A stretch of DNA of 17,976 nt from Escherichia coli. GTDB taxonomy: Bacteria > Pseudomonadota > Gammaproteobacteria > Enterobacterales > Enterobacteriaceae. Shown piece after piece: positions 3,141 to 15,314 of this stretch; position 1 is the stretch's first letter; the number at the start of each line of letters is the position of its first letter. A model generated the notes under the pieces. The model had not been told where the DNA came from. It saw only the letters and a program-made list of their open reading frames with translations, and made no database searches. The stretch is from assembly GCF_003334385.1 (NCBI RefSeq), contig NZ_QOWN01000062.1. One strand, written 5' to 3'. The translations under genes and the position numbers were made by a program.

Positions 3141-3368
3141 ATGTTTAAATCAGACGTAATTAATTTTTACGGTACGAAAGCCAAAGTAGCGAAAGCTGCT
3201 GGCGTTGACCCATCTGCTGTTTCTCAATGGCAAGAGCTGGTTCCTGAAGGTCGCGCGATGCGTCTACAGGAGGCATCTGGCGGCGAGCTTCTGTATGATC
3301 CCAAGGTTTATGACGAATATCGTAAGACGAAGCGGGCGGGGCGGTTGAACAATGAAAATCACTCCTGA
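3141..3368 (+). CDS. dicC: DicC-like (Cro-type) regulator, 75 aa
   Basis: ATG at 3141 with GGAGGTG Shine-Dalgarno. MFKSDVINFYGTKAKVAKAAGVDPSAVSQWQ...EGRAMRLQEASGGELLYDPKVYDEYRKTKRAGRLNNENHS resembles DicC. Divergent from the repressor. Confidence 0.8.
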   Translation: MFKSDVINFYGTKAKVAKAAGVDPSAVSQWQELVPEGRAMRLQEASGGELLYDPKVYDEYRKTKRAGRLNNENHS

Positions 3369-3873
3369 ACAGGCTCGTGAGGCTCTGGATGCCTGGATAT
3401 GTCGACCAGGAATGACACAGGAGCAGGCGACGATATTAATCACTGAAGCATTCTGGGCTTTGAAAGAGCGCCCGAACATCGATGTTCAGCGTGTCACATA
3501 TGAAGGTGGCGCGATTGATCAGCGAGCGCTTGGCGTTAATCGAGTGAAGATATTTGAACGCTGGAAGGCTATCGACACCAGGGATAAGCGTGAAAAGTTC
3601 ACGGCGCTAGTGCCTGCAATTATGGAGGCTATCCGGATTAATGATTTCAGGTTGTATCGTGAAATTACTGACGGAAAAAGCATCACGTGCATGATCGCCG
3701 GGTTAAACAAAGAATATGGCGATGTGGTGGAGTCCGGACTGCTTTTTGCTGATCCTGCCGTAGTGGATCGTGAAACTGACGAACTTATAGAAAAAGCAAT
3801 TGCTTTCAAACTTGCGTATCGACAGCAATACCAACAAAAAGCTGGATGGAATTATGAGCCTTCTTTTTGCTGA
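3352..3873 (+). CDS. Hypothetical 173-aa protein at the CII position (possibly YdaT-like); function not recognised
   Basis: Track ORF; ATG overlaps the dicC-like 3' end by 17 nt, suggesting translational coupling. Family assignment is a guess from gene position. Confidence 0.55.
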   Translation: MKITPEQAREALDAWICRPGMTQEQATILITEAFWALKERPNIDVQRVTYEGGAIDQRALGVNRVKIFERWKAIDTRDKREKFTALVPAIMEAIRINDFRLYREITDGKSITCMIAGLNKEYGDVVESGLLFADPAVVDRETDELIEKAIAFKLAYRQQYQQKAGWNYEPSFC

Positions 3874-4819
3874 ACGCCCACTGGTTATAAACACGCAGCT
3901 GGCAATGAAAATTGGCTTAAACGAAGCCATTGTTTTGCAACAACTGCACTACTGGTTGAGAGATACCAACTCCGGCATGGAATGTGATGGTGTTCGCTGG
4001 ATTTATAACACAACGGAACAATGGCTGGAACAGTTCCCATTCTGGTCAGAGTCAACGTTAAAGCGCGCGTTTGCAAGTCTGAAAACGCTGGGGCTTTTGC
4101 GTTGTGAAAAGCTCAATAAATCAAAGCGCGATATGACCAATTTCTACACGATCAACTATGGGTGCGAGCTTTTAGATGGTGGCAAATTGAGCGAATCCAT
4201 CGGTTCAAAATGCGCCGCTCCATCAGGTCAAAATGACACGATGGAAGAGGTCAAAATGAAACGCTCCATTGGTTCAAAACGACCCAATGTCATCGGGTCA
4301 AAATGGCCTGATGATCTTACAGAGAATACAACAGAGATTACTACAGAGAATAAAAACACTTTTCGTCCGGAAGCTTCGCAACCGGACCCGCAGACGACTG
4401 AACAGGATTTTTTAACCCGGAACTCCGACGCGGTTGTGTTTAGTGCGAAAAAACGCCAGTGGGGTAGCAGGGAGGATTTGGCGTGTGCGCAGTGGATCTG
4501 GGGGCGGATCGTGGGTCTCTACGAACAGGCAGCCAGTGATGATGGCGAGATCATGCGACCAAAAGAGCCTAACTGGACTGCCTGGGCCAATGACGTGCGC
4601 ACAATGCGGATGCTGGATGGCAGAAGCCACAGACAAATTTGCGAAATGTTTGGTCGGGTTCAGCGAGATCCATTCTGGGTAAAAAACATCATGAGCCCGT
4701 CAAAGCTCCGCGAAAAATGGGACGAACTGGTCATCCGCCTGGGACGTTCACCTGTACAGCGTTGTGTTAATCATATTTCTGAACCGGATACAGAAATTCC
4801 GCCTGGTTTCAGAGGATAA
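3854..4819 (+). CDS. Phage replication initiator / replisome-organizer protein (lambda O-like role), 321 aa from the ATG at 3854
   Basis: Track ORF 3800..4819; preferred start at 3854 (MSLLFAERPLVINTQLAMKIGLNEAIVLQQLHYWL, an HTH-like N-terminus). The gene contains five iteron repeats at 4196-4305, as ori-lambda lies inside O. Confidence 0.7.
   Translation: MSLLFAERPLVINTQLAMKIGLNEAIVLQQLHYWLRDTNSGMECDGVRWIYNTTEQWLEQFPFWSESTLKRAFASLKTLGLLRCEKLNKSKRDMTNFYTINYGCELLDGGKLSESIGSKCAAPSGQNDTMEEVKMKRSIGSKRPNVIGSKWPDDLTENTTEITTENKNTFRPEASQPDPQTTEQDFLTRNSDAVVFSAKKRQWGSREDLACAQWIWGRIVGLYEQAASDDGEIMRPKEPNWTAWANDVRTMRMLDGRSHRQICEMFGRVQRDPFWVKNIMSPSKLREKWDELVIRLGRSPVQRCVNHISEPDTEIPPGFRG
4196..4305 (+). repeat. 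Five direct iterons (core GGT(T)CAAAA(T/C)G) at 22-25 bp spacing inside the replication gene; candidate replication origin
   Basis: Core starts at 4202, 4226, 4249, 4271 and 4296, with flanks TCCATCGGTTCAAAATG, TCCATCAGGTCAAAATG, GAGGTCAAAATG, TCCATTGGTTCAAAACG and GTCATCGGGTCAAAATG. Followed at 4320-4356 by three ACAGAGA(A/T)TA repeats in an A-rich stretch. Confidence 0.6.
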
Positions 4820-4859
4820 GTGTTGATTTCAGGTCATGAGGTAATTTTAAGGGGGACTT

Positions 4860-5282
4860 GTGGCAAAAGTTTTTACACAAGAAGAGCGGGAAAAAATTAA
4901 ATGGCAGGTGGTGGAACTCGTGCGCCAGAGCGGCCGTGAGACGTTACGGCAACTGGAAGCTAAAACAGGTGCGACTAGATATCTGATGAGCGTTCTTGCC
5001 AGAGAGCTGGTAGCCAGTGGCGATGTATACAACTCCGGCTACGGGTTATTCCCCTCTGAACAGGCGCGTAAGGACTGGCAAAACGCCCGCAAAAAACTCT
5101 CGAGGGCAAAGGTGAAGAAACCTGCTTTGGTTGATCCGGACCTTATCTGGTCATCACCTGACGGAGAAATACGTCGCTACGACAGTCGCCTAAACATAAT
5201 CTGTCGCGAGTGCCGGAAGAGCGAAGTTATGCAGCGCATACTGGCTTTCTATCAGGGTAATTTTCAGGACGTGGCGCAGTGA
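4860..5282 (+). CDS. Hypothetical 140-aa protein (GTG start), downstream of the replication initiator
   Basis: Track ORF preceded by AAGGGGGA Shine-Dalgarno. Its stop overlaps the GTG start of the following methyltransferase ORF (GTGA). No recognisable motif. Confidence 0.5.
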   Translation: MAKVFTQEEREKIKWQVVELVRQSGRETLRQLEAKTGATRYLMSVLARELVASGDVYNSGYGLFPSEQARKDWQNARKKLSRAKVKKPALVDPDLIWSSPDGEIRRYDSRLNIICRECRKSEVMQRILAFYQGNFQDVAQ

Positions 5283-5725
5283 GTGCACCGGCAACCATTC
5301 TTGATATGTGCTGTGGCAGCCGCATGTTCTGGTTCGATAAGTCTGACGAACGGGCGATATTCAGCGATATCAGAAAAGAAGGATACACATTACGCAATGG
5401 GAGACGCTTGATTATCAGCCCTGACATTATCGCAGATTTTCGTGCATTATCATTTGCAGACGCATCTTTTTCGATGGTTGTATTAGACCCTCCGCATCTT
5501 GAGAGTGTTGGTGATAACGCCTGGATGGGAAAGAAATATGGACGGCTGAATAAAGATGCCTGGCGTGATGATTCGCGACAGAGATTTAAAGAAGCCTTTC
5601 GGGTGTTGAGGCCGCACGGCGTTCTGATTTTTTAATGGAATGAAACGCAAATACCGGTAAGCCAGATTCTGGCACTGACAGACAGAAAACCTGTTATCTG
5701 TCAACGAACAGGGAAAAAACGATAA
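5279..5725 (+). pseudogene. DNA amino-methyltransferase (motif I DMCCGS, motif IV DPPH) interrupted by an in-frame TAA at 5633-5635
   Basis: Track ORF 5279..5635 carries VVLDPPHLE, the D-P-P-[YFWH] catalytic motif of N6A/N4C methyltransferases, and a SAM-binding-like ILDMCCGS. The same frame continues after the TAA for 29 codons (WNETQIPVSQILALTDRKPVICQRTGKKR) to a TAA at 5723-5725. Confidence 0.5.
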
Positions 5726-5897
5726 AACCCACTGGATTATTTTTATGAAAGAGGCATCCAGTGAGTAGATTCGTAAGGCTACAGATACGTATATCTGAAT
5801 AATTAAATTCAGTTCTGTAAATAAAATTTAATCCTTAACCGGATGGATTTCTGCACCCTCAGAACATCAGGAGGCAGCCCGAAAGGGCGGTAGTGAA

Positions 5898-6080
5898 ATG
5901 CGAAAGTTCAAAATTATTATTGAAACGGGAATAGCTGGTGGAGATTTTGAGGATGTATTCGAAGTGGACGATGACGCAACACCTGAGGAAATTCATGACG
6001 GAGCATAAGAAATTTTCTTTAACTACTGCAATTACTCATACCACGAAATAAAAGACGATGAGGAAGAACAAAGTGGCTGA
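5898..6080 (+). pseudogene. Small acidic ORF (36 codons) with an in-frame TAA at 6006-6008 and a 23-codon in-frame continuation
   Basis: MRKFKIIIETGIAGGDFEDVFEVDDDATPEEIHDGA, stop, then EIFFNYCNYSYHEIKDDEEEQSG in the same frame. Manual translation. Confidence 0.3.
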
Positions 6081-6249
6081 TTTTTGTTCAGCTAAATATA
6101 ACATCAGTTTTGAAGAGCGGGATGAACTATTAATGGACTATGGTGAGTTACGCGGTGGAAGTGCTGCTGATGTCGAATCCTAGCGTGATGACTATGAAGC
6201 GGGAAAAACTCCGGTCGAAGCATATTGTGATGAGTGGGGCGATGAATGA
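6058..6249 (+). pseudogene. Small ORF (41 codons) with an in-frame TAG at 6181-6183 and a 21-codon acidic in-frame continuation
   Basis: MRKNKVADFCSAKYNISFEERDELLMDYGELRGGSAADVES, stop, then RDDYEAGKTPVEAYCDEWGDE. The terminal TGA overlaps the ATG of the next ORF (ATGA). Confidence 0.35.
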
Positions 6250-6533
6250 GCGAGATTAATTATCAGGAAGGGCATGAAACGGCGGGGCAAGCAAAACCAG
6301 TGGCATGGCGATATCGCTACGTGAAAAAAGGCGTTACGGACTTTCAGGGGAAGTAGTGGTCTGGTGACTGGAAATATGTACCGAAAAAAGAGGATTGTAA
6401 CGACAGGCCGAACTATCAAATTCAGGCCTTATTCACTGCCTCACCAGTCCCAGTTACATCAGAAGAACTGGTTAAAGCTGTGCACTTTTATGAACAACTA
6501 AAACGCGAAAATCCACCAACATCCGGCAACTAG
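6246..6533 (+). pseudogene. Small ORF (36 codons) with an in-frame TAG at 6354-6356 and a 58-codon in-frame continuation
   Basis: MSEINYQEGHETAGQAKPVAWRYRYVKKGVTDFQGK, stop, then WSGDWKYVPKKEDCNDRPNYQIQALFTASPVPVTSEELVKAVHFYEQLKRENPPTSGN in the same frame. Confidence 0.4.
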
Positions 6534-6787
6534 ATTAATGGATTAACTATGTCGGTTAAACGACCAGCCAACTGAAAAAGCGGAAACCTGATTACAGGTT
6601 GCCAGATAAGGCAATGAGCTACCTGGCGCGGAACGGACTGATAAGTATGGGGAATGTTTTACGATGAACCTTTAGACTAAAGAGTTTGTAACGCTATGTA
6701 AGTGATTTTTTCTGGTTTAGATATTTATATGTCCGGCCAAATTGAGGTGTGTTTAAATGTAATTGCACATTGATTGTAGGAGGAATA

Positions 6788-6967
6788 ATGAAAAACGCAT
6801 TGCAGTTTTTGTTTGTTGCGTTCTGGTTGTTCGCATCATGTATGCCCATCATCTTCACAGCAAGGTATATGGAAAAAGTTGATGTTTTGATATTAATATT
6901 TGGATATATAAATGCCCTTTTTTTAGGGGTGTTCATGGCGGTCATGTGCATTGAATACTGGCGGTAA
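6788..6967 (+). CDS. Small hydrophobic protein, 59 aa, two predicted transmembrane segments
   Basis: ATG at 6788 with AGGAGG at 6778-6783. MKNALQFLFVAFWLFASCMPIIFTARYMEKVDVLILIFGYINALFLGVFMAVMCIEYWR. No antisense gene explains it. Confidence 0.45.
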   Translation: MKNALQFLFVAFWLFASCMPIIFTARYMEKVDVLILIFGYINALFLGVFMAVMCIEYWR

Positions 6968-7301
6968 ATACAGCGAACTCCATTGGTTTAGTTGGATATT
7001 TACTGTGCTGGACAAAAACGGTTTGCGGGGAAATCTTAGTTAAGTAGAATGACTGCGGGTGCTTGAGGCTATCTGCCTCGGGCATGGACACCAACGGCAG
7101 ATAGAGAAAAGCCCCAGTTAACATTACGCGTCCTGCAAGACGCTTAACATTAATCTGAGGCCAATTTCATGCTAGACACATGTAGGTTAGCCTCTTACGT
7201 GCCGAAAGGCACGGAGAAGCAGGCTATTGTTAACACCAAGCTGTAATGTCCCCTTTGAACCATTCTAAAATGTCCCCAGACAATTCTCTGGGGGATTTTT
7301 C

Positions 7302-8615
7302 ATGATCAAAGAGACTGTTACGATGAGTCATAAGGAACTCCACCGACTTCAGATTATTCAGGAACAAGCTGCGGCACGCATTGGCATTTCTATTCGGCAG
7401 GTTAAACGTCTGGTGCAACGGTATAGAAATGAAGGGCCTTCTGGTCTGGTTTCCCACCGACGTGGAAAGCGTCCTAATAATTCCTTTTCTACTGAATTCA
7501 GAGCAACAGTAATTTCACTCCTCAAAGGCCGTTACGCTGATTTTGGACCTACGTTTGCGTGCGAAAAATTGCGCGAGATACACGGTTTATCTTTATCCGT
7601 TGAAACTCTCAGAAAGTGGATGATAGAAGAGGGGTTATGGCGTGAACGCCGTCGTAAAATTGCCCGTATATATCAACGCCGCATGCGACGACCATCTTAC
7701 GGTGAACTGATCCAGATTGATGGCTCACCTCATGACTGGTTTGAAAATCGAGGCCCCAGATGTACACTGATCGTTTTCATTGATGATGCCACCAGTGCGT
7801 TGATGGCGTTGCGTTTTGTGCCTGCTGAAACAACCCGGGCTTACATGGAAACCCTCCGGGGTTACCTTAATGATCATGGCGTACCGCTCGCTCTCTACTC
7901 TGATAGACACAGTATATTCAGGGTAAATAACCCAGAGCGGGAAGGTGAGCTGACCCAGTTCACTCGTGCGATAAAGACACTGGGCATCGAGCCAATCCAT
8001 GCCAACAGCCCGCAGGCAAAAGGGCGGGTAGAGCGCGCCAATCAGACACTACAGGACAGGCTGGTCAAAGAAATGCGGCTTCAGAATATCAGTGATATTG
8101 AAACAGCAAATGCATGGTTGCCGACCTTTATTGAAGCCTATAACAACCGGTTCGCTACGTCGCCTCGTACTACTGATAATGCTCATCTTGATGTGCACCA
8201 TTCTGAAGAGGAACTGGGTTATATCTTCAGCCTACAGGCGAAGCGCGTTCTGTCTAAAAATCTCACTTTCCAGTACAAAAGCAGTGCGTTTCAGGTACGC
8301 AGTGAGGGCCGGGGATATCGACTTAGGCATTCGGTTGTTACTGTATGCGAGAACTTTGACGGTGAAATTAACGTTCTGTATGACGGGAAAGCGCTGGGCT
8401 GGGAAAAGTATGTTGATGGCCCGGAGCCTATACCACTGGATGATGAAAAGAGTGTCCATGAACGAGTGGATAATGCCCGTATTGATTTACGCTCAAAATA
8501 CTATGTTAAACCTAAAGCTGACCATCCCTGGCTTACGCGCCGAACGCAAAGTCATCAGCAAGTTAAGCCCCCGAAGTTACCTAAAAAGAAGCCTGATCCC
8601 GATAAAAAAGATTGA
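7302..8615 (+). CDS. IS-element DDE transposase (integrase-core/rve type with N-terminal HTH), 437 aa; family uncertain (IS481-like or ISNCY-like)
   Basis: Track ORF with HTH-like N-terminus (IGISIRQVKRLVQRY) and candidate DDE residues in IQIDGSPHDW, IVFIDDATSA and GRVERANQTLQD. Ends of the element could not be defined. Confidence 0.8.
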   Translation: MIKETVTMSHKELHRLQIIQEQAAARIGISIRQVKRLVQRYRNEGPSGLVSHRRGKRPNNSFSTEFRATVISLLKGRYADFGPTFACEKLREIHGLSLSVETLRKWMIEEGLWRERRRKIARIYQRRMRRPSYGELIQIDGSPHDWFENRGPRCTLIVFIDDATSALMALRFVPAETTRAYMETLRGYLNDHGVPLALYSDRHSIFRVNNPEREGELTQFTRAIKTLGIEPIHANSPQAKGRVERANQTLQDRLVKEMRLQNISDIETANAWLPTFIEAYNNRFATSPRTTDNAHLDVHHSEEELGYIFSLQAKRVLSKNLTFQYKSSAFQVRSEGRGYRLRHSVVTVCENFDGEINVLYDGKALGWEKYVDGPEPIPLDDEKSVHERVDNARIDLRSKYYVKPKADHPWLTRRTQSHQQVKPPKLPKKKPDPDKKD

Positions 8616-9018
8616 AACCAAGATCGATTCGGTTGAGTGCATATCCATTCATAGGGTAGATTCTTAAGTCGCGTTTCTGGTGTTCATTTTCGGGTGGTTT
8701 GTTACTTGTTTTACCGGGGATATGCCAGAAACGCGCTGAGTCAGTCTGGGCGGTGCGCGTAATGAGGCGTTATGGTAAATAGCCTATGCTAATGTCCGCT
8801 AAGAGCAAGAAGCGGAAGTTGGCAGTTTTGTGGACTGTCCCCACAAAAGTGACTACAGAAATAGTTGCAATTCATAATTGATCATGGGTTGTCAGTTAAA
8901 CTCGTGGCGATTTAAATAGACTAATTGGGAGTGCGTCCATTACTTATATCTTGTAATGTTAACTATCAGAAATGATACAAAGATAATATGTCTTTAAAGA
9001 AAAGGCTGATGGCGAAAA

Positions 9019-9037
9019 GTGGCCCGATGAGGGCCAC
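9019..9037 (-). terminator. Candidate intrinsic terminator downstream of flxA
   Basis: Hairpin GTGGCCC-GATGA-GGGCCAC just 3' of the flxA stop; on the minus strand it is followed by a short T-rich tract (TTTTCGCC). Confidence 0.35.
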
Positions 9038-9051
9038 AATACGGCTGTCAC

Positions 9052-9384
9052 TTAGACGTAAATATCAATGGTGCCAGCGGTATTTGTATCGTCTTTTTTC
9101 TCTTCTTTTTTATCAGGCTGAACTGTCGCGTCTTCATTCTTTTTCTCTGCCTGCTGCCTTAACAACTGCTCCAGTTGAGCCCAGAGGCTTTCAATTTGCT
9201 TCTGTACCAATGCAGCCATTTCTTTTTTCTGCTGTGTCGTCATCCCCTCTTCCGATGAGATTTTCCCAAGCTTTTCAGTCAGCACCTGAATTTGTCTTGT
9301 GATTTTGGCTATTTCTGATGTTCCTTCCGGGGCGGAGTTGTTTGAAATAACGGTTGAGGTATTTCCCTGAATTGTGACAGACAT
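9052..9384 (-). CDS. flxA: FlxA (110 aa)
   Basis: Track ORF MSVTIQGNTSTVISNNSAPEGTSEIAKITRQIQVLTEKLG... matches FlxA as I recall it. AAGGAG Shine-Dalgarno and a sigma-28 promoter lie upstream. Confidence 0.85.
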   Translation of the reverse strand: MSVTIQGNTSTVISNNSAPEGTSEIAKITRQIQVLTEKLGKISSEEGMTTQQKKEMAALVQKQIESLWAQLEQLLRQQAEKKNEDATVQPDKKEEKKDDTNTAGTIDIYV

Positions 9385-9407
9385 AGATTTCTCCTTTTAA
9401 AAAAGCA

Positions 9408-9434
9408 CTATCGGCATGCACAAAAAAATCTTTA
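9408..9434 (-). promoter_or_regulatory. Sigma-28 (FliA) class promoter for flxA
   Basis: Minus strand reads TAAAGATT - 11 nt - GCCGATAG, against the consensus TAAAGTTT-N11-GCCGATAA, about 25 nt upstream of the flxA start. Confidence 0.6.
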
Positions 9435-9586
9435 ATCGTATTTCTTGTGTCATTAATTGTTTGATGTTCAGATTGTTTTCCTCGCGGGCTGGCGCGCCTC
9501 AGAAAGTAAAGCTTGTTGACAGGGGTAAACGTTCGGCAATAATTTTCTGCCGCATGCGGGTGTTGCATAAAACGTGTTACGTTCCT

Positions 9587-9892
9587 TTATCGACAGGTCA
9601 GGTCACCGCTCACCCGCCGACGAGAAAGCAACACTGACATGCTAAAGCAAAAAATAGATGAATAAGTTGAGTTGTGCATATGTAGCCTGACCGTCACAAA
9701 GTATATGGTGTCTGTACCAGTAAGATGATGGCCGGACTCTTTAAAAACGAGCTGACCTGCACAATACAGGATGGACTTAGCAATGGCTGCTCCTGGCACA
9801 AAGCGGACAGTGATCACCGTTCTTACGACTACTTTCTGACTTCCTTCGTGACTTGCCCTAAGCATGTTGTAGTGCGATACTTGTAATGACAT
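9587..9892 (-). CDS. ORF at the ydfV position (101 codons); coding status uncertain
   Basis: Track ORF MSLQVSHYNMLRASHEG... between flxA and relB; same length as ydfV in K-12 as I recall. No motif support. Confidence 0.2.
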   Translation of the reverse strand: MSLQVSHYNMLRASHEGSQKVVVRTVITVRFVPGAAIAKSILYCAGQLVFKESGHHLTGTDTIYFVTVRLHMHNSTYSSIFCFSMSVLLSRRRVSGDLTCR

Positions 9893-9905
9893 TTGTAATT
9901 ACAAG
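9881..9905 (+). promoter_or_regulatory. relO operator of the relBE promoter
   Basis: TTGTAATGACATTTGTAATTACAAG, with inverted TTGTAAT/ATTACAA repeats, directly upstream of the relB Shine-Dalgarno (GAGGTG) and ATG at 9917. Confidence 0.7.
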
Positions 9906-9916
9906 AGGTGTAAGAC

Positions 9917-10156
9917 ATGGGTAGCATTAACCTGCGTATTGACGATGAACTTAAAGCGCGTTCTTACGCCGCGCTTGAAAAAATGGGTGTAACTCCTTCT
10001 GAAGCGCTTCGTCTCATGCTCGAGTATATCGCTGACAATGAACGCTTGCCGTTCAAACAGACACTCCTGAGTGATGAAGATGCTGAACTTGTGGAGATAG
10101 TGAAAGAACGGCTTCGTAATCCTAAGCCAGTACGTGTGACGCTGGATGAACTCTGA
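9917..10156 (+). CDS. relB: RelB antitoxin (79 aa)
   Basis: MGSINLRIDDELKARSYAALEKMGVTPSEALRLMLEYIADNERLPFKQTLLSDEDAELVEIVKERLRNPKPVRVTLDEL; near-identical to RelB as I recall it. Confidence 0.92.
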   Translation: MGSINLRIDDELKARSYAALEKMGVTPSEALRLMLEYIADNERLPFKQTLLSDEDAELVEIVKERLRNPKPVRVTLDEL

Positions 10157-10443
10157 TGGCGTATTTTCTGGATTTTGACGAGCGGGCACTAAAGGAATGG
10201 CGAAAGCTGGGCTCGACGGTACGTGAACAGTTGAAAAAGAAGCTGGTTGAAGTACTTGAGTCACCCCGGATTGAAGCAAACAAGCTCCGTGGTATGCCTG
10301 ATTGTTACAAGATTAAGCTCCGGTCTTCAGGCTATCGCCTTGTATACCAGGTTATAGACGAGAAAGTTGTCGTTTTCGTGATTTCTGTTGGGAAAAGAGA
10401 ACGCTCGGAAGTATATAGCGAGGCGGTCAAACGCATTCTCTGA
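10156..10443 (+). CDS. relE: RelE mRNA-interferase toxin (95 aa)
   Basis: MAYFLDFDERALKEWRKLGSTVREQLKKKLVEVLESPRIEANKLRGMPDCYKIKLRSSGYRLVYQVIDEKVVVFVISVGKRERSEVYSEAVKRIL. ATG overlaps the relB stop (ATGA). Confidence 0.92.
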   Translation: MAYFLDFDERALKEWRKLGSTVREQLKKKLVEVLESPRIEANKLRGMPDCYKIKLRSSGYRLVYQVIDEKVVVFVISVGKRERSEVYSEAVKRIL

Positions 10444-10514
10444 ACCAAAGCATGACATCTCTGTTTCGCACCGAAGGTGACACTTCTGCTTTGCGTTGAC
10501 AGGAGAAGCAGGCT

Positions 10515-10670
10515 ATGAAGCAGCAAAAGGCGATGTTAATCGCCCTGATCGTCATCTGTTTAACCGTCATAGTGACGGCACTGGTAACGAGGAAAGACCT
10601 CTGCGAGGTACGAATCCGAACCGGCCAGACGGAGGTCGCTGTCTTCACAGCTTACGAACCTGAGGAGTAA
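10515..10670 (+). CDS. hokD: HokD (RelF) Hok-family membrane toxin, 51 aa
   Basis: Manual translation MKQQKAMLIALIVICLTVIVTALVTRKDLCEVRIRTGQTEVAVFTAYEPEE; GGAGAAG Shine-Dalgarno. Under 60 aa, so absent from the ORF track. Confidence 0.9.
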   Translation: MKQQKAMLIALIVICLTVIVTALVTRKDLCEVRIRTGQTEVAVFTAYEPEE

Positions 10671-10735
10671 GAGACCCGGCGGGGGAGAAATCCCTCGCCA
10701 CCTCTGATGTGGCAGGCATCCTCAACGCACCCGCA

Positions 10736-10768
10736 CTTAACCCGCTTCGGCGGGTTTTTGTTTTTATT
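10736..10768 (+). terminator. Intrinsic terminator after relBE-hokD
   Basis: CCCGC-TTCG-GCGGG hairpin followed by TTTTTGTTTTTATTTT. Confidence 0.6.
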
Positions 10769-10886
10769 TTCAACGCGTTTGAAGTTCTGGACGGTGCCGG
10801 AATAGAATCAAAAATACTTAAGTAGCGCGCAGGGATAAGAGGGATGGTCCCTTAAAGGGGAGAGCTAATTATCCGGAAGGATTCTG

Positions 10887-11192
10887 ATGATGAACATCGA
10901 AGAACTGCGTAAAATTTTTTGTGAAGATGGCCTCTATGCTGTGTGCGTTGAAAATGGAAATCTTGTTAGTCATTACCGCATTATGTGTTTGCGAAAGAAT
11001 GGGGCTGCGTTAATTAATTTTGTGGATGCTCGGGTCACGGACGGATTTATCTTGCGCGAAGGTGAGTTTGTCACTTCATTACAGGCATTGAAAGAGATCG
11101 GAATAAAAGCTGGCTTTTCTGCTTTTCTGGTAACAAAGTGCTGGCAGGAAGAAGCATACGCGGAAGCGCAATTGAGGAAGGTGACGAGATAA
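10887..11192 (+). CDS. rem: Rem-like small protein
   Basis: Track ORF MMNIEELRKIFCEDGLYAVCVENGNLVSHYRIMCLRKNGAALINFVDARVTDGFILREGEF... resembles Rem of Qin. The C-terminus may differ in length from K-12. Confidence 0.65.
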   Translation: MMNIEELRKIFCEDGLYAVCVENGNLVSHYRIMCLRKNGAALINFVDARVTDGFILREGEFVTSLQALKEIGIKAGFSAFLVTKCWQEEAYAEAQLRKVTR

Positions 11193-11299
11193 ATGATTTT
11201 TGCTGAAGATGGCGACATGATGTTTGCATTTTTCAAAAAATATGGATAAAATTTTTTCAACGATGGGCTTTGTATACCCGACGTTAAGAAAAAGTAGAA

Positions 11300-11324
11300 A
11301 ACCCGCTGATGAGCGGGTTTTGTG
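11300..11324 (+). terminator. Intrinsic terminator downstream of rem
   Basis: CCCGC-TGATGA-GCGGG hairpin followed by TTTTGTG. Confidence 0.5.
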
Positions 11325-11613
11325 CTTTAAATGGGGCAATGGTAATGTTGAATCTCATCCCGGGACTCATGTCTGTTAACTTATTATTTAGCTGGTGACT
11401 TGGTTATTTGCCTGATGTTTAAAATGTTTTCTTCCAGTACAATGTCCCTAAACACAATGAGTCTGCTTATTATATTATTAGCAGAGCTATTACGGCCAAA
11501 GTACAGCATAAGCTTTTAAAGCCAATCAACCAGTCATCAAGACAGACGGGGTTATTCATAAAAACTCTCCATGTGTGATCCGATGGGGCCTGAAATTAAA
11601 GCTTTAATATAGC

Positions 11614-11826
11614 TCATGAAAGGTAAACATTGGCAGCTGAAGGGCCACGCAGACCATTTATCCGGCAAAATTCCACGCGTAATCCGGTGGTAATTTCTTC
11701 TGCATCGCGGAGATTGAGCGCTGAAACATGAAGCTGGACATCGATACGACCATCGGATGGGGTGATAAGACCCTTGCCGCTTTTGCCGTCAAAGGTTTTG
11801 ACAATTCCTGTCATTTTACGGGACAA
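11614..11826 (-). CDS. cspF: CspF/CspH-like cold-shock-domain protein (70 aa, apparent TTG start)
   Basis: Track [73 protein letters not shown]. Divergent from cspB as in Qin. Confidence 0.75.
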
Positions 11827-12126
11827 AAAAATTCCTTAATACTGATAACTTGGCGCACTATACACACGTTCCTGAAGAAAGCTATAGTTTTTTGATGGGG
11901 TTGAAGATGGCTGGATGTCTAAAATAAACATTGCTTCATATGTTCAACTATGCGTTAATGATTGCGTCGGTTTGAAGAACAGACGATATACGAAGTAGTT
12001 TACTAAAGCAGTTCTCATTTCAGGTGTTATTCACTTATTCCTTCTTTGAGTCTCTCCAATTAAGTACGAAGTCGTTTCTGTTATGCAAACCATTTATGCC
12101 GAAAGGCTCAAGTTAAGGAATGTAGA

Positions 12127-12342
12127 ATGTCAAATAAAATGACTGGTTTAGTAAAATGGTTTAACGCTGATAAAGGTTTCGGCTTTATTTCTCCTGTTGA
12201 TGGTAGTAAAGATGTGTTTGTGCATTTTTCTGCGATTCAGAATGATAATTATCGAACCTTATTTGAAGGTCAAAAGGTTACCTTCTCTATAGAGAGTGGT
12301 GCTAAAGGTCCTGCAGCAGCAAATGTCATCATTACTGATTAA
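12127..12342 (+). CDS. cspB: Cold-shock protein CspB (71 aa)
   Basis: [71 protein letters not shown]. Long 5' UTR containing a TGCCGAAAGGC box, as in the csp family. Confidence 0.9.
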
Positions 12343-14651: not shown

Positions 14652-15013
14652 GGTAATATTAAATCGGAACATTTACATCGCGGAATGTAAAATTTAAATA
14701 AAAAGGACTCTTCCATGAGCCAAAATTCCTGAAATCTTAAGGGTAAGATAAAAGGTCTTAATCAGAATGACACGTTTTATTAATAAATAAAGCTATTCTT
14801 TCATTGCTGTGTTTTTCTTTACAAAAGTAATCCTTGCTATGGGTGGTTAATCATGCGTTAATGGTGTTCTGGTTTGTTACAAATTTATCTGAAGCAGTCA
14901 TTGTTATAATTTTATTATTTGTACCTCTTGAGATTTCCTTGTTGGTTTTTCTCTCTGATATTTTTTTTCGGACCATTCTGCCCAAGGGCTAATTTCTTCA
15001 AAAGGTAATAATT

Positions 15014-15226
15014 ATGTCTAACAAAATGACTGGTTTAGTGAAATGGTTTAACCCTGAAAAAGGTTTTGGTTTCATCACGCCGAAAGATGGCAGCAAAGAT
15101 GTGTTTGTCCATTTCTCAGCAATTCAGAGCAACGATTTCAAAACATTAACTGAGAATCAGGAAGTTGAATTTGGTATTGAGAACGGACCTAAAGGTCCTG
15201 CCGCTGTTCATGTAGTGGCGCTTTGA
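15014..15226 (+). CDS. cspI: Cold-shock protein CspI (70 aa)
   Basis: [70 protein letters not shown]. Confidence 0.88.
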
Positions 15227-15314
15227 GGTAGACAATATTACAAACCATATTCACTTTAGATGCCCGTGTTGTCATGGTTCCCAGTATAGAACATCATCTT
15301 TTGATGTTTCTGAC

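Follow-up and report, generated by a model that had tools for sequence, protein, structure and literature searches.

Four consecutive genes of a Qin-type cryptic prophage of Escherichia coli as probable long-standing, inherited pseudogenes

Why would four consecutive small genes of a phage-like operon all be interrupted by in-frame stop codons? The question is raised by a 17,976-nucleotide stretch of E. coli DNA (contig NZ_QOWN01000062.1; hereafter, the window). A preliminary description of it had proposed exactly one stop per gene with no frameshift, and had attributed the stops to recent inactivation by base substitution or to a sequencing artefact. We compared the genes with intact homologs drawn from annotated genome records, using as the main intact colinear reference a prophage of strain JNEC-KY178, in which all four genes are intact. 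The best explanation, to which we give a probability of about 0.9, is that the four genes downstream of the DUF977 gene are long-standing, inherited pseudogenes of the Qin prophage that arose by ordinary decay.

The window corresponds to Qin, a defective lambdoid (cryptic) prophage of E. coli, as indicated by synteny and by 97-100% identity with K-12 Qin and annotated Qin-type prophages. It carries dicB, the DicF RNA, ydfA/B, a dicA-type repressor and a dicC-type cro, followed further on by flxA, ydfV, relBE, hokD, rem and cold-shock genes; Rfam matches in the window were DicF, sok and two cspA leaders. Gene order was read from the PGAP annotation of strain SCU-104, whose region is 99.8% identical to the window. 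Qin of K-12 (also called Kim, b1544-b1579) is the same element at the same kind of locus, and shares with the window the order dicB-dicF-ydfABC-dicA-dicC on one side and ydfW-flxA-ydfV-relBE-hokD-rem on the other. The MG1655 prophage is 100% identical, in two blocks, to window positions 8431-12181. It lacks the segment corresponding to 3632-8430, of which the stumps ydfX and ydfW remain, and all four genes are therefore absent from K-12. The window, unlike MG1655 Qin, lacks ydfU and most of ydfT.

The rightward early operon runs cro, cII/YdaT-like, O-like, DUF977, methyltransferase, DUF7167, gene 3 and gene 4, the damaged genes forming its distal portion. The NCBIfam search gave no match for any of the seven early-operon proteins. 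The features at issue are as follows, the word pseudogene standing for the reading argued below.

4860..5282, + strand: DUF977 / Ren-like exclusion gene, intact, 140 aa (WP_001151262.1, a PGAP CDS in SCU-104); PHROG 142, E = 1.6e-47, full length
5279..5768, + strand: methyltransferase pseudogene; GTG start at 5279, ancestral frame ending at TAG 5766-5768; 157-164 aa in intact homologs
5633..5635, + strand: nonsense codon 1, in the methyltransferase; TAA from AAA (Lys), A>T
5711..5713, + strand: +1 G in the methyltransferase; GGG against GG in the intact homolog L007 (pairwise alignment), common to all seven Qin-type alleles compared
5898..6080, + strand: DUF7167 pseudogene (gene 2), 60 aa in homologs; sole lesion TAA 6006-6008 from AAA (Lys)
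6073..6249, + strand: gene 3 pseudogene, PHROG 519, 58 aa (CDS of 177 nt) in homologs; sole disabling lesion TAG 6181-6183 from TGG (Trp)
6246..6667, + strand: gene 4 pseudogene, PHROG 660 (E = 1.4e-74, full length, for L007), 171 aa in the intact homolog; ancestral stop TGA 6665-6667
6354..6356, + strand: first stop of gene 4; TAG, with CAG or ATG in homologs
6531..6533, + strand: second nonsense codon of gene 4 (fifth overall); TAG from CAG, AAT CAG GTT in L007 against AAC TAG ATT in the window
6564/6565, + strand: 4-bp deletion in gene 4 that shifts the frame of the gene's last third; the +2 frame reads SQLKKRKPDYRLPDKAMSYLARNGLISMGNVLR*, the C-terminus of the homolog

The four stops first described (TAA 5633-5635, TAA 6006-6008, TAG 6181-6183 and TAG 6354-6356) are in frame, and the frames stay open after them. 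The segments 3′ of the stops are genuine coding remnants, with 87-95% nucleotide identity to the C-terminal parts of intact homologs, and homologs align across the stops with the sense codons AAA (K), AAA (K), TGG (W) and CAG (Q; M in L007). The proposal of base substitution was borne out, each stop being a single-base nonsense change (AAA>TAA twice, TGG>TAG and CAG>TAG) in a once-intact gene.

The one-stop-per-gene, indel-free pattern, in contrast, did not survive the alignments. The methyltransferase gene also has the +1 G, 26 codons past TAA 5633-5635, and because of it the final codons ahead of TAA 5723 lie outside the ancestral frame. Gene 4, which had been taken to end at 6533, ran on to TGA 6665-6667, the TAG at 6531-6533 replacing a CAG of the intact homolog. 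In addition to this second TAG and the 4-bp deletion, it has lost 90 bp in frame near 6513-6520, between CCACCA repeats. The start of gene 3 had been placed at ATG 6058; it lies instead at GTG 6073, a codon that reads ATG in the 58-aa homologs. Genes 2 and 3 share 8 nt. Of two ATGA junctions reported, the one at 6246-6249 exists, whereas the DUF977/methyltransferase junction is GTGA (5279-5282); the operon layout is nonetheless preserved, as had been stated. In total, five nonsense changes, two frameshifts and one deletion were counted within 1.4 kb relative to the JNEC-KY178 prophage. The disabling lesions are thus independent and of several kinds (nonsense, +1 and -4 indels, a 90-bp deletion), as in pseudogenes.

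The decay of these genes is already on record, since PGAP/RefSeq labels them 'internal stop' or 'frameshifted; internal stop'. Gene 4 bears the latter label over window positions 6246-6667, as does the same methyltransferase allele in strains 13P484A and MB22. Gene 2, whose intact homolog matches PHROG 1997 (E = 1.4e-29), is named 'DUF7167 family protein; internal stop' at a locus identical to the window. Most records, however, list the methyltransferase fragment of 118 aa as an ordinary CDS (WP_001310834.1), which counts against a pseudogene reading of that gene.

The lesions are widespread. Of 5,426 complete genomes, 365 carry the whole set of four stop alleles. We also searched for alleles with reverted sense codons, using N spacers between the pieces and including the fifth site, and found no genome with Qin flanks and a sense codon. 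Among seven Qin-type alleles compared, every lesion was common to all, and two of the seven had private indels as well (two 1-bp losses in gene 4 in L014, two 2-bp gains in L015). As 365 genomes share the alleles, no Qin-flanked sense codon was found and the first stop and 90-bp deletion of gene 4 are common to the CFT073 type, the lesions are old and inherited. Recent inactivation is not supported: the alleles are fixed throughout the Qin-type copies that were compared, and that stop and deletion extend to another lineage and to an induced phage.

The intact module is found in lambdoid elements that are active or less decayed, namely the prophages of JNEC-KY178 and CFT073 and the phages vB_EcoS-640R1, vB_EcoS-689R5 and ArgO145, in the same order as in the window and at 87-95% nucleotide identity. 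It comprises DUF977, the methyltransferase or an alternative gene, DUF7167, the 58-aa gene, and an ead/Ea22-like or PHROG 660 gene. The copies in these relatives have sense codons and full-length open reading frames; genes 2 and 3, in particular, are intact in four phage records and in CFT073, with sense codons where the window has stops. Gene 4 departs from this in the CFT073-type prophages and in phage vB_EcoS-640R1, which share TAG 6354 and the 90-bp deletion with Qin and have extra gene 4 lesions of their own. Gene 4 was probably already defective by the time the segment became common to the Qin-type and CFT073-type prophages. Its pseudogene allele moves between prophage lineages and is found in an induced phage, and gene 4 is therefore dispensable for phage growth.

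Comparison of substitution rates pointed to relaxed constraint relative to the intact homologs. For genes 2 and 3 together, omega was 0.15-0.20 for the window, compared with 0.04-0.08 among intact homologs at similar dS, values of low precision given the short sequences. Nonsynonymous differences in these two genes numbered 14-17 in the window against 4-7 in intact homologs, and included the replacement of invariant residues (W>R, G>C and H>D). They were also raised in the methyltransferase gene, which is 89% identical in DNA to its intact homolog. Three conserved residues were replaced (R>S 5504, L>S 5574 and D>E 5987) within the Qin lineage once the stops were fixed, and polymorphism within Qin amounted to 8 nonsynonymous and 7 synonymous changes plus the private indels. 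The DUF977 gene, after which the damage in the rightward early operon begins, had an omega of 0.13-0.16 relative to close homologs, and the upstream stretch of 2.1 kb from cro to DUF977 was free of lesions.

The nonsense count agrees with a neutral model. Among 78 lineage-private substitutions (44 transitions and 34 transversions; 39 nonsynonymous and 35 synonymous changes), 4 were nonsense, against 1.5-3.5 expected neutrally (P = 0.07-0.47). The strictest estimate, in which the neutral phase is represented by the excess nonsynonymous changes only, gives 4 against 1.5 expected, which is mildly high (P = 0.07). A common mutational signature such as deamination was considered and ruled out by the mixture of types among the five nonsense changes (A>T twice, C>T twice and G>A once) and by the balance of transitions and transversions. 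No special mutational process is needed.

Selection might nevertheless have favored the knock-outs, if prophage genes such as an orphan DNA methyltransferase or small host-takeover proteins harmed the host. All four consecutive genes are broken next to 2.1 kb without a lesion, an outcome with a probability of about 4e-6 at the downstream lesion density; the nonsense number slightly exceeds the strictest neutral estimate; and the methyltransferase homolog of O157:H7 TW14359 has an independent internal stop, at a different codon. That contrast between upstream and downstream genes would, however, be equally explained by selection keeping the upstream genes, and two of the three estimates place the nonsense number inside neutral expectation. 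Redundant lesions, two in the methyltransferase gene and four in gene 4, are superfluous for selection and are what drift after loss of function leaves. Other E. coli prophages commonly carry the four genes in intact form, and the genes are therefore tolerated. We thus consider selected silencing quite improbable as the explanation, although selection for inactivation may have contributed in part.

Alternatively, the stops might be leaky, with selection maintaining a low level of full-length protein. In favor of this, hundreds of genomes have the stops in common. Genes 2 and 3, moreover, each have one stop and no indel or other disabling lesion, with no private amino-acid change in the 18 codons past the stop of gene 3, observations that also count against decay. 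Against read-through, a T or a G follows the TAA at two of the stops, and these are strong termination contexts in E. coli. Frameshifts and the deletion past the stops put the methyltransferase and gene 4 beyond restoration by read-through, and genes 2 and 3, free of other lesions as they are, show radical private replacements at invariant residues, with omega raised 2-4 fold and constraint relaxed overall. The within-Qin ratio of 8 nonsynonymous to 7 synonymous changes, together with the private indels, argues in the same direction, and a tRNA scan of the window found no tRNA gene, hence no suppressor tRNA. Conservation of the stops follows from vertical inheritance at >99% identity. Read-through has been proposed for many in-frame stops conserved over many genomes of prokaryotes (Belinky et al. 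2021, PMC7918605); the Qin stops resemble those cases in their conservation but differ in lying in near-identical, vertically inherited DNA, accompanied by frameshifts, deletions and relaxed constraint. This makes functional read-through very unlikely, if less clearly so for genes 2 and 3 taken by themselves.

Taken as a pair, these two possibilities amount to a sharp 'domestication boundary' within a single operon, at 5279-5282, where selection in the host would have silenced the methyltransferase and the three small genes while keeping the upstream cro, cII-like, O-like and Ren-like (DUF977) genes, or else to low-level read-through of genes 2 and 3; we regard the pair as improbable.

An error in sequencing or assembly, or mutation confined to this strain and of very recent date, has a minute probability, given identical alleles, all four together, in 365 independently assembled complete genomes from various laboratories, hosts and continents and a 1,422-bp segment (5279-6700) 100% identical to that of SCU-104. 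Equally negligible is an alternative genetic code in which the phage reads TAG and TAA as sense: the five internal stops are all TAA or TAG, but the absence of TGA among five has a chance probability of about 0.13, the two codons would stand for three amino acids (in place of K, K, W, Q and Q), adjoining intact genes have no in-frame stops, the window holds no suppressor tRNA, the host uses the standard code and related phages have sense codons in the same genes.

Ordinary decay probably accounts for the locus. With the prophage stranded in the chromosome, its accessory genes would no longer be needed; they would then accumulate the usual disabling mutations, here five nonsense changes, a pair of small indels that shift the frame and the loss of 90 bp between short repeats. 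These lesions became fixed in the Qin lineage and are passed on with the prophage at its chromosomal site. The four genes presumably express no functional protein, and we infer that their decay was neutral rather than selected.

A general picture of bacterial pseudogenes in defective prophages was reportedly given by Bobay, Touchon and Rocha in PNAS in 2014. Like other pseudogenes of defective prophages, the Qin genes combine several kinds of lesion (nonsense, frameshift, deletion), are inherited vertically, show a relaxed dN/dS and are eroded further in individual strains through IS elements and deletions. They show no essential difference from typical cases, the sole peculiarity being that nonsense is the only lesion in genes 2 and 3. 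Such pseudogenes have been described in general terms (Ramisetty and Sudhakari 2019, PMC6379469).

Distal decay against proximal intactness in one operon offers a small case in which uneven erosion, or domestication, of a cryptic prophage can be tested. The relevance is otherwise mainly one of annotation hygiene. A 'clean' run of nonsense codons can mimic a special process if gene ends are guessed from the sequence alone, and alignment to an intact homolog resolves it into ordinary decay. WP_001310834.1, a 118-aa 'class I SAM-dependent methyltransferase' carried as a normal protein in many RefSeq genomes, is on this reading the truncated product of a pseudogene.

The intact ancestor of the methyltransferase had been proposed as a probably active phage amino-methyltransferase, and the family assignment holds at the level of sequence. 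The intact homolog L007 matches the PHROG 954 DNA methyltransferase family over residues 5-157 (E = 2.2e-85), corresponding to the NCBI name 'class I SAM-dependent methyltransferase'. The window copy has motif I (ILDMCCGS) and motif IV (DPPH), as do all homologs; a SAM-binding motif I together with a (D/N/S)PP(Y/F/W/H) motif IV defines amino-methyltransferases. The Pfam search gave only insignificant Methyltransf_11/25 matches, and the search of PDB sequences gave nothing below E = 0.3. A further candidate lesion, loss of a stop (GAG 5751 against TAG in L007), was dropped, as other intact homologs also extend there (KEGNQ*, KEAASEQN*). One homolog is named as a member of the TRM11 family, and the predicted substrate is DNA or RNA.

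Each of the following four genes is interrupted by an in-frame stop codon.

5279..5768, + strand, methyltransferase (gene 1)
5898..6080, + strand, DUF7167 gene (gene 2)
6073..6249, + strand, gene 3
6246..6667, + strand, gene 4

The stops are located where the preliminary description had placed them (TAA 5633-5635, TAA 6006-6008, TAG 6181-6183 and TAG 6354-6356), and past each of them the reading frame remains open. A six-frame listing of 5279-6700 yielded short ORFs only. Intact homologs were found in phages vB_EcoS-640R1 and vB_EcoS-689R5, an Stx2c phage, ArgO145 and E. coli prophages. In L007, a prophage of E. coli strain JNEC-KY178, all four genes are intact and colinear with the window, coding for a methyltransferase of 157 aa, a DUF7167 protein of 60 aa, and gene 3 and gene 4 homologs of 58 and 171 aa. 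As the preliminary description had expected of genuine nonsense changes, the homologs read across the stops with sense codons, AAA (K), AAA (K), TGG (W) and CAG (Q), except that L007 has ATG at the fourth position.

We mapped lesions by base-by-base alignment with L007 and by a five-way alignment of gene 4. The earlier claim of one stop per gene without frameshift failed, as the methyltransferase is frameshifted and gene 4 has a second stop and 4-bp and 90-bp deletions. An additional G at 5711-5713 means that the methyltransferase frame previously followed to TAA 5723 is not ancestral; the ancestral frame, NDKTHWIIFMKEASSE, terminates at 5766-5768. Gene 4, whose original end is TGA 6665-6667, is missing 90 bp near 6513-6520, a gap that falls between CCACCA repeats. 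TAG 6531-6533, mistaken for its natural end, replaces a CAG of the homolog. After the frameshifting 4-bp deletion at 6564/6565 the gene continues in the +2 frame, and this reads SQLKKRKPDYRLPDKAMSYLARNGLISMGNVLR*, in agreement with the homolog C-terminus. The start codon of gene 3 is at 6073, not 6058, with GTG in the window versus ATG in homologs. In total, the 1.39 kb carries five nonsense substitutions, two indels that shift the frame and one deletion. PGAP's conclusion on identical alleles agrees with this tally, with the labels 'DUF7167 family protein; internal stop' and 'hypothetical protein; frameshifted; internal stop', to which a subset of records adds 'SAM-dependent methyltransferase; frameshifted; internal stop'. 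The pseudogenes had already been marked as such by this standard annotation pipeline.

The 1.7 kb surrounding the stop codons matches 513 E. coli records at 99% identity or more, and strain SCU-104 is 99.8% identical to the whole window. Its annotated gene order is as follows.

First block: exonuclease, ydfD, dicB, ydfB, ydfA, dicA-type repressor
Second block: cro, YdaT/cII-like, O-like, DUF977, methyltransferase, DUF7167, hypothetical gene
Third block: ISNCY transposase, ydfW, flxA, ydfV, relBE, hokD, rem

Together with the Rfam matches in the window (DicF, a sok remnant and two cspA leaders) and the MG1655 annotation of the same element as 'cryptic prophage Qin', this order places the broken genes distally in the rightward early operon of a defective lambdoid prophage of the Qin type. 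K-12 Qin has lost window 3632-8430, whereas 8431-12181 is 100% identical in two blocks.

The proximal genes at 3141-5282 (cro, cII/YdaT-like of 173 aa, O-like of 321 aa and DUF977/Ren-like of 140 aa) carry no disabling lesion; the adjoining 1.39 kb downstream has eight, a density at which ~12 would be expected in 3141-5282 (P(0) ~4e-6). The undamaged and damaged parts meet at the GTGA overlap, 5279-5282. Either the proximal genes were selectively kept (domestication, e.g., Ren-like exclusion) or a recent recombination event replaced the block.

The alleles were queried in complete genomes with four 55-mers centred on the stops, each 28-base seed being forced to span the mutated base. All four co-occurred in 365 of 5,426 genomes, from humans, cattle, pigs, poultry, frog, soil and seawater. 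Neither the sequencing artefact nor the recent inactivation proposed earlier applies. The reverse query, with sense codons within Qin flanks and N spacers, gave no exact match in those flanks for genes 2, 3 and 4; for the methyltransferase and DUF7167 it matched other prophage lineages only. Every lesion is common to the seven Qin-type alleles compared. Further damage comprises two 1-bp deletions in MB22 gene 4, two 2-bp insertions in SCU-316, and removal of the entire methyltransferase by an IS1 in AF10.

The TAG 6354 allele occurs alone in ~600 further genomes. In CFT073 and DA61218 it sits in a different prophage with intact genes 2 and 3, and gene 4 there shares the 90-bp deletion with the window, to which a +2 A slippage and a further deletion have been added. 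The induced phage vB_EcoS-640R1 carries the same gene 4 allele. These shared lesions indicate that the breakage of gene 4 predates its sharing between Qin-type and CFT073-type lineages, and that gene 4 is dispensable for viable phage.

Private changes of the window were counted over 1,059 nt, each gene being compared with two to five homologs. The 78 substitutions (44 transitions, 34 transversions) comprise 35 synonymous, 39 nonsynonymous and 4 nonsense changes, and 3.4-5.6% of random substitutions from the homolog consensus would create stops. With all 78 changes as the neutral set, 3.5 nonsense changes are expected (probability of four or more, 0.47); with all nonsynonymous changes, 2.4 (0.23); and with only the ~24 excess nonsynonymous changes, 1.5 (0.07). 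Selected silencing of the four genes may have contributed, though improbably, and is not needed to account for the data. A one-per-gene distribution would have P = 0.07 given four stops, and was rejected as gene 4 holds two; a single mutational signature was also rejected, the five nonsense changes being 2 A>T, 1 G>A and 2 C>T.

The Qin branch appears to be under relaxed constraint. Omega for genes 2 and 3 is 0.15-0.20 in the window versus 0.04-0.08 among intact homologs at similar dS. Residues invariant elsewhere are radically replaced (W>R, H>D, G>C), and conserved residues changed inside the Qin lineage after stop fixation (5504 R>S, 5574 L>S, 5987 D>E). Functional read-through of the in-frame stops, a reading cited from PMC7918605, could restore neither the methyltransferase nor gene 4, and is disfavoured for genes 2 and 3, where constraint is relaxed and no tRNA gene was found in the window. 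Reassignment of the genetic code is ruled out: the stops that replace three different amino acids are of two kinds, and the adjacent genes contain no in-frame stop. The set is one of ordinary, old, vertically inherited pseudogenes in a well-known cryptic prophage; the preliminary description was partly confirmed in its observation and partly supported in its interpretation.

Gene 1 belongs to PHROG 954 ('DNA methyltransferase', E = 2e-85), and both motif I and DPPH are present; family and motifs favour the proposed phage methyltransferase as its probable ancestor. Searches with it against Pfam, NCBIfam and PDB sequences added nothing significant. Genes 2, 3 and 4 fall in PHROGs 1997, 519 and 660, none with an assigned function, the 171-aa L007 homolog matching PHROG 660 along its full length. 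In another prophage, of E. coli O157:H7 TW14359 (NC_013008.1 5137401-5137874), a homolog of the methyltransferase is independently interrupted elsewhere in its frame, by W>* at codon 95 ('...NKDT*RDD...', flagged 'internal stop' by PGAP). This small gene may be lost repeatedly in resident prophages, and possibly deserves a count. A GC-rich hairpin with a GAAA loop, GCAGCCCGAAAGGGCGGT, lies at 5870-5897 between GGAGG and the DUF7167 ATG and is kept in L007 with one base different; it may serve as a signal for translation or processing of the distal genes.

Two cspA-type thermoregulator leaders (Rfam RF01766; 11966-12358, 159 bits; 14868-15253, 113 bits) mark the Qin cold-shock genes (cspB/cspF/cspI region), where G+C drops to 35-36%. 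Compared with K-12 MG1655 and SCU-104, the window lacks ~2.1 kb at 11126/11127, comprising the rem end, entire ydfU and most of ydfT (antiterminator Q), between flanks 100% identical to K-12. rem is fused to foreign sequence in an ORF of 101 aa (10887-11192) versus the normal 83 aa.

A match to the sok antitoxin RNA (104 bits) is found 3.3 kb upstream of hokD (regions 7057-7228 and 10501-10670). The 14-nt direct repeat GGAGAAGCAGGCTA, at ~7213-7226 and 10501-10514, bounds block 7228-10500, which contains the ISNCY transposase, ydfW, flxA, ydfV and relBE. Because this repeat flanks the block, and sok adjoins hokD in CFT073-type prophages and vB_EcoS-640R1 but not in the window, the hok/sok locus is read as split by insertion of the block, consistent with the published integration of relBE into hokD (PMC6379469). 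An open 437-aa ORF at 7302-8615 matches the ISNCY transposase model NF033594 over its full length (456 bits), whereas PGAP annotates the identical SCU-104 sequence as an 'incomplete' transposase and a separate 49-aa 'YdfW'. K-12 ydfW is the final 49 codons of the ISNCY transposase, a remnant of the K-12 deletion.
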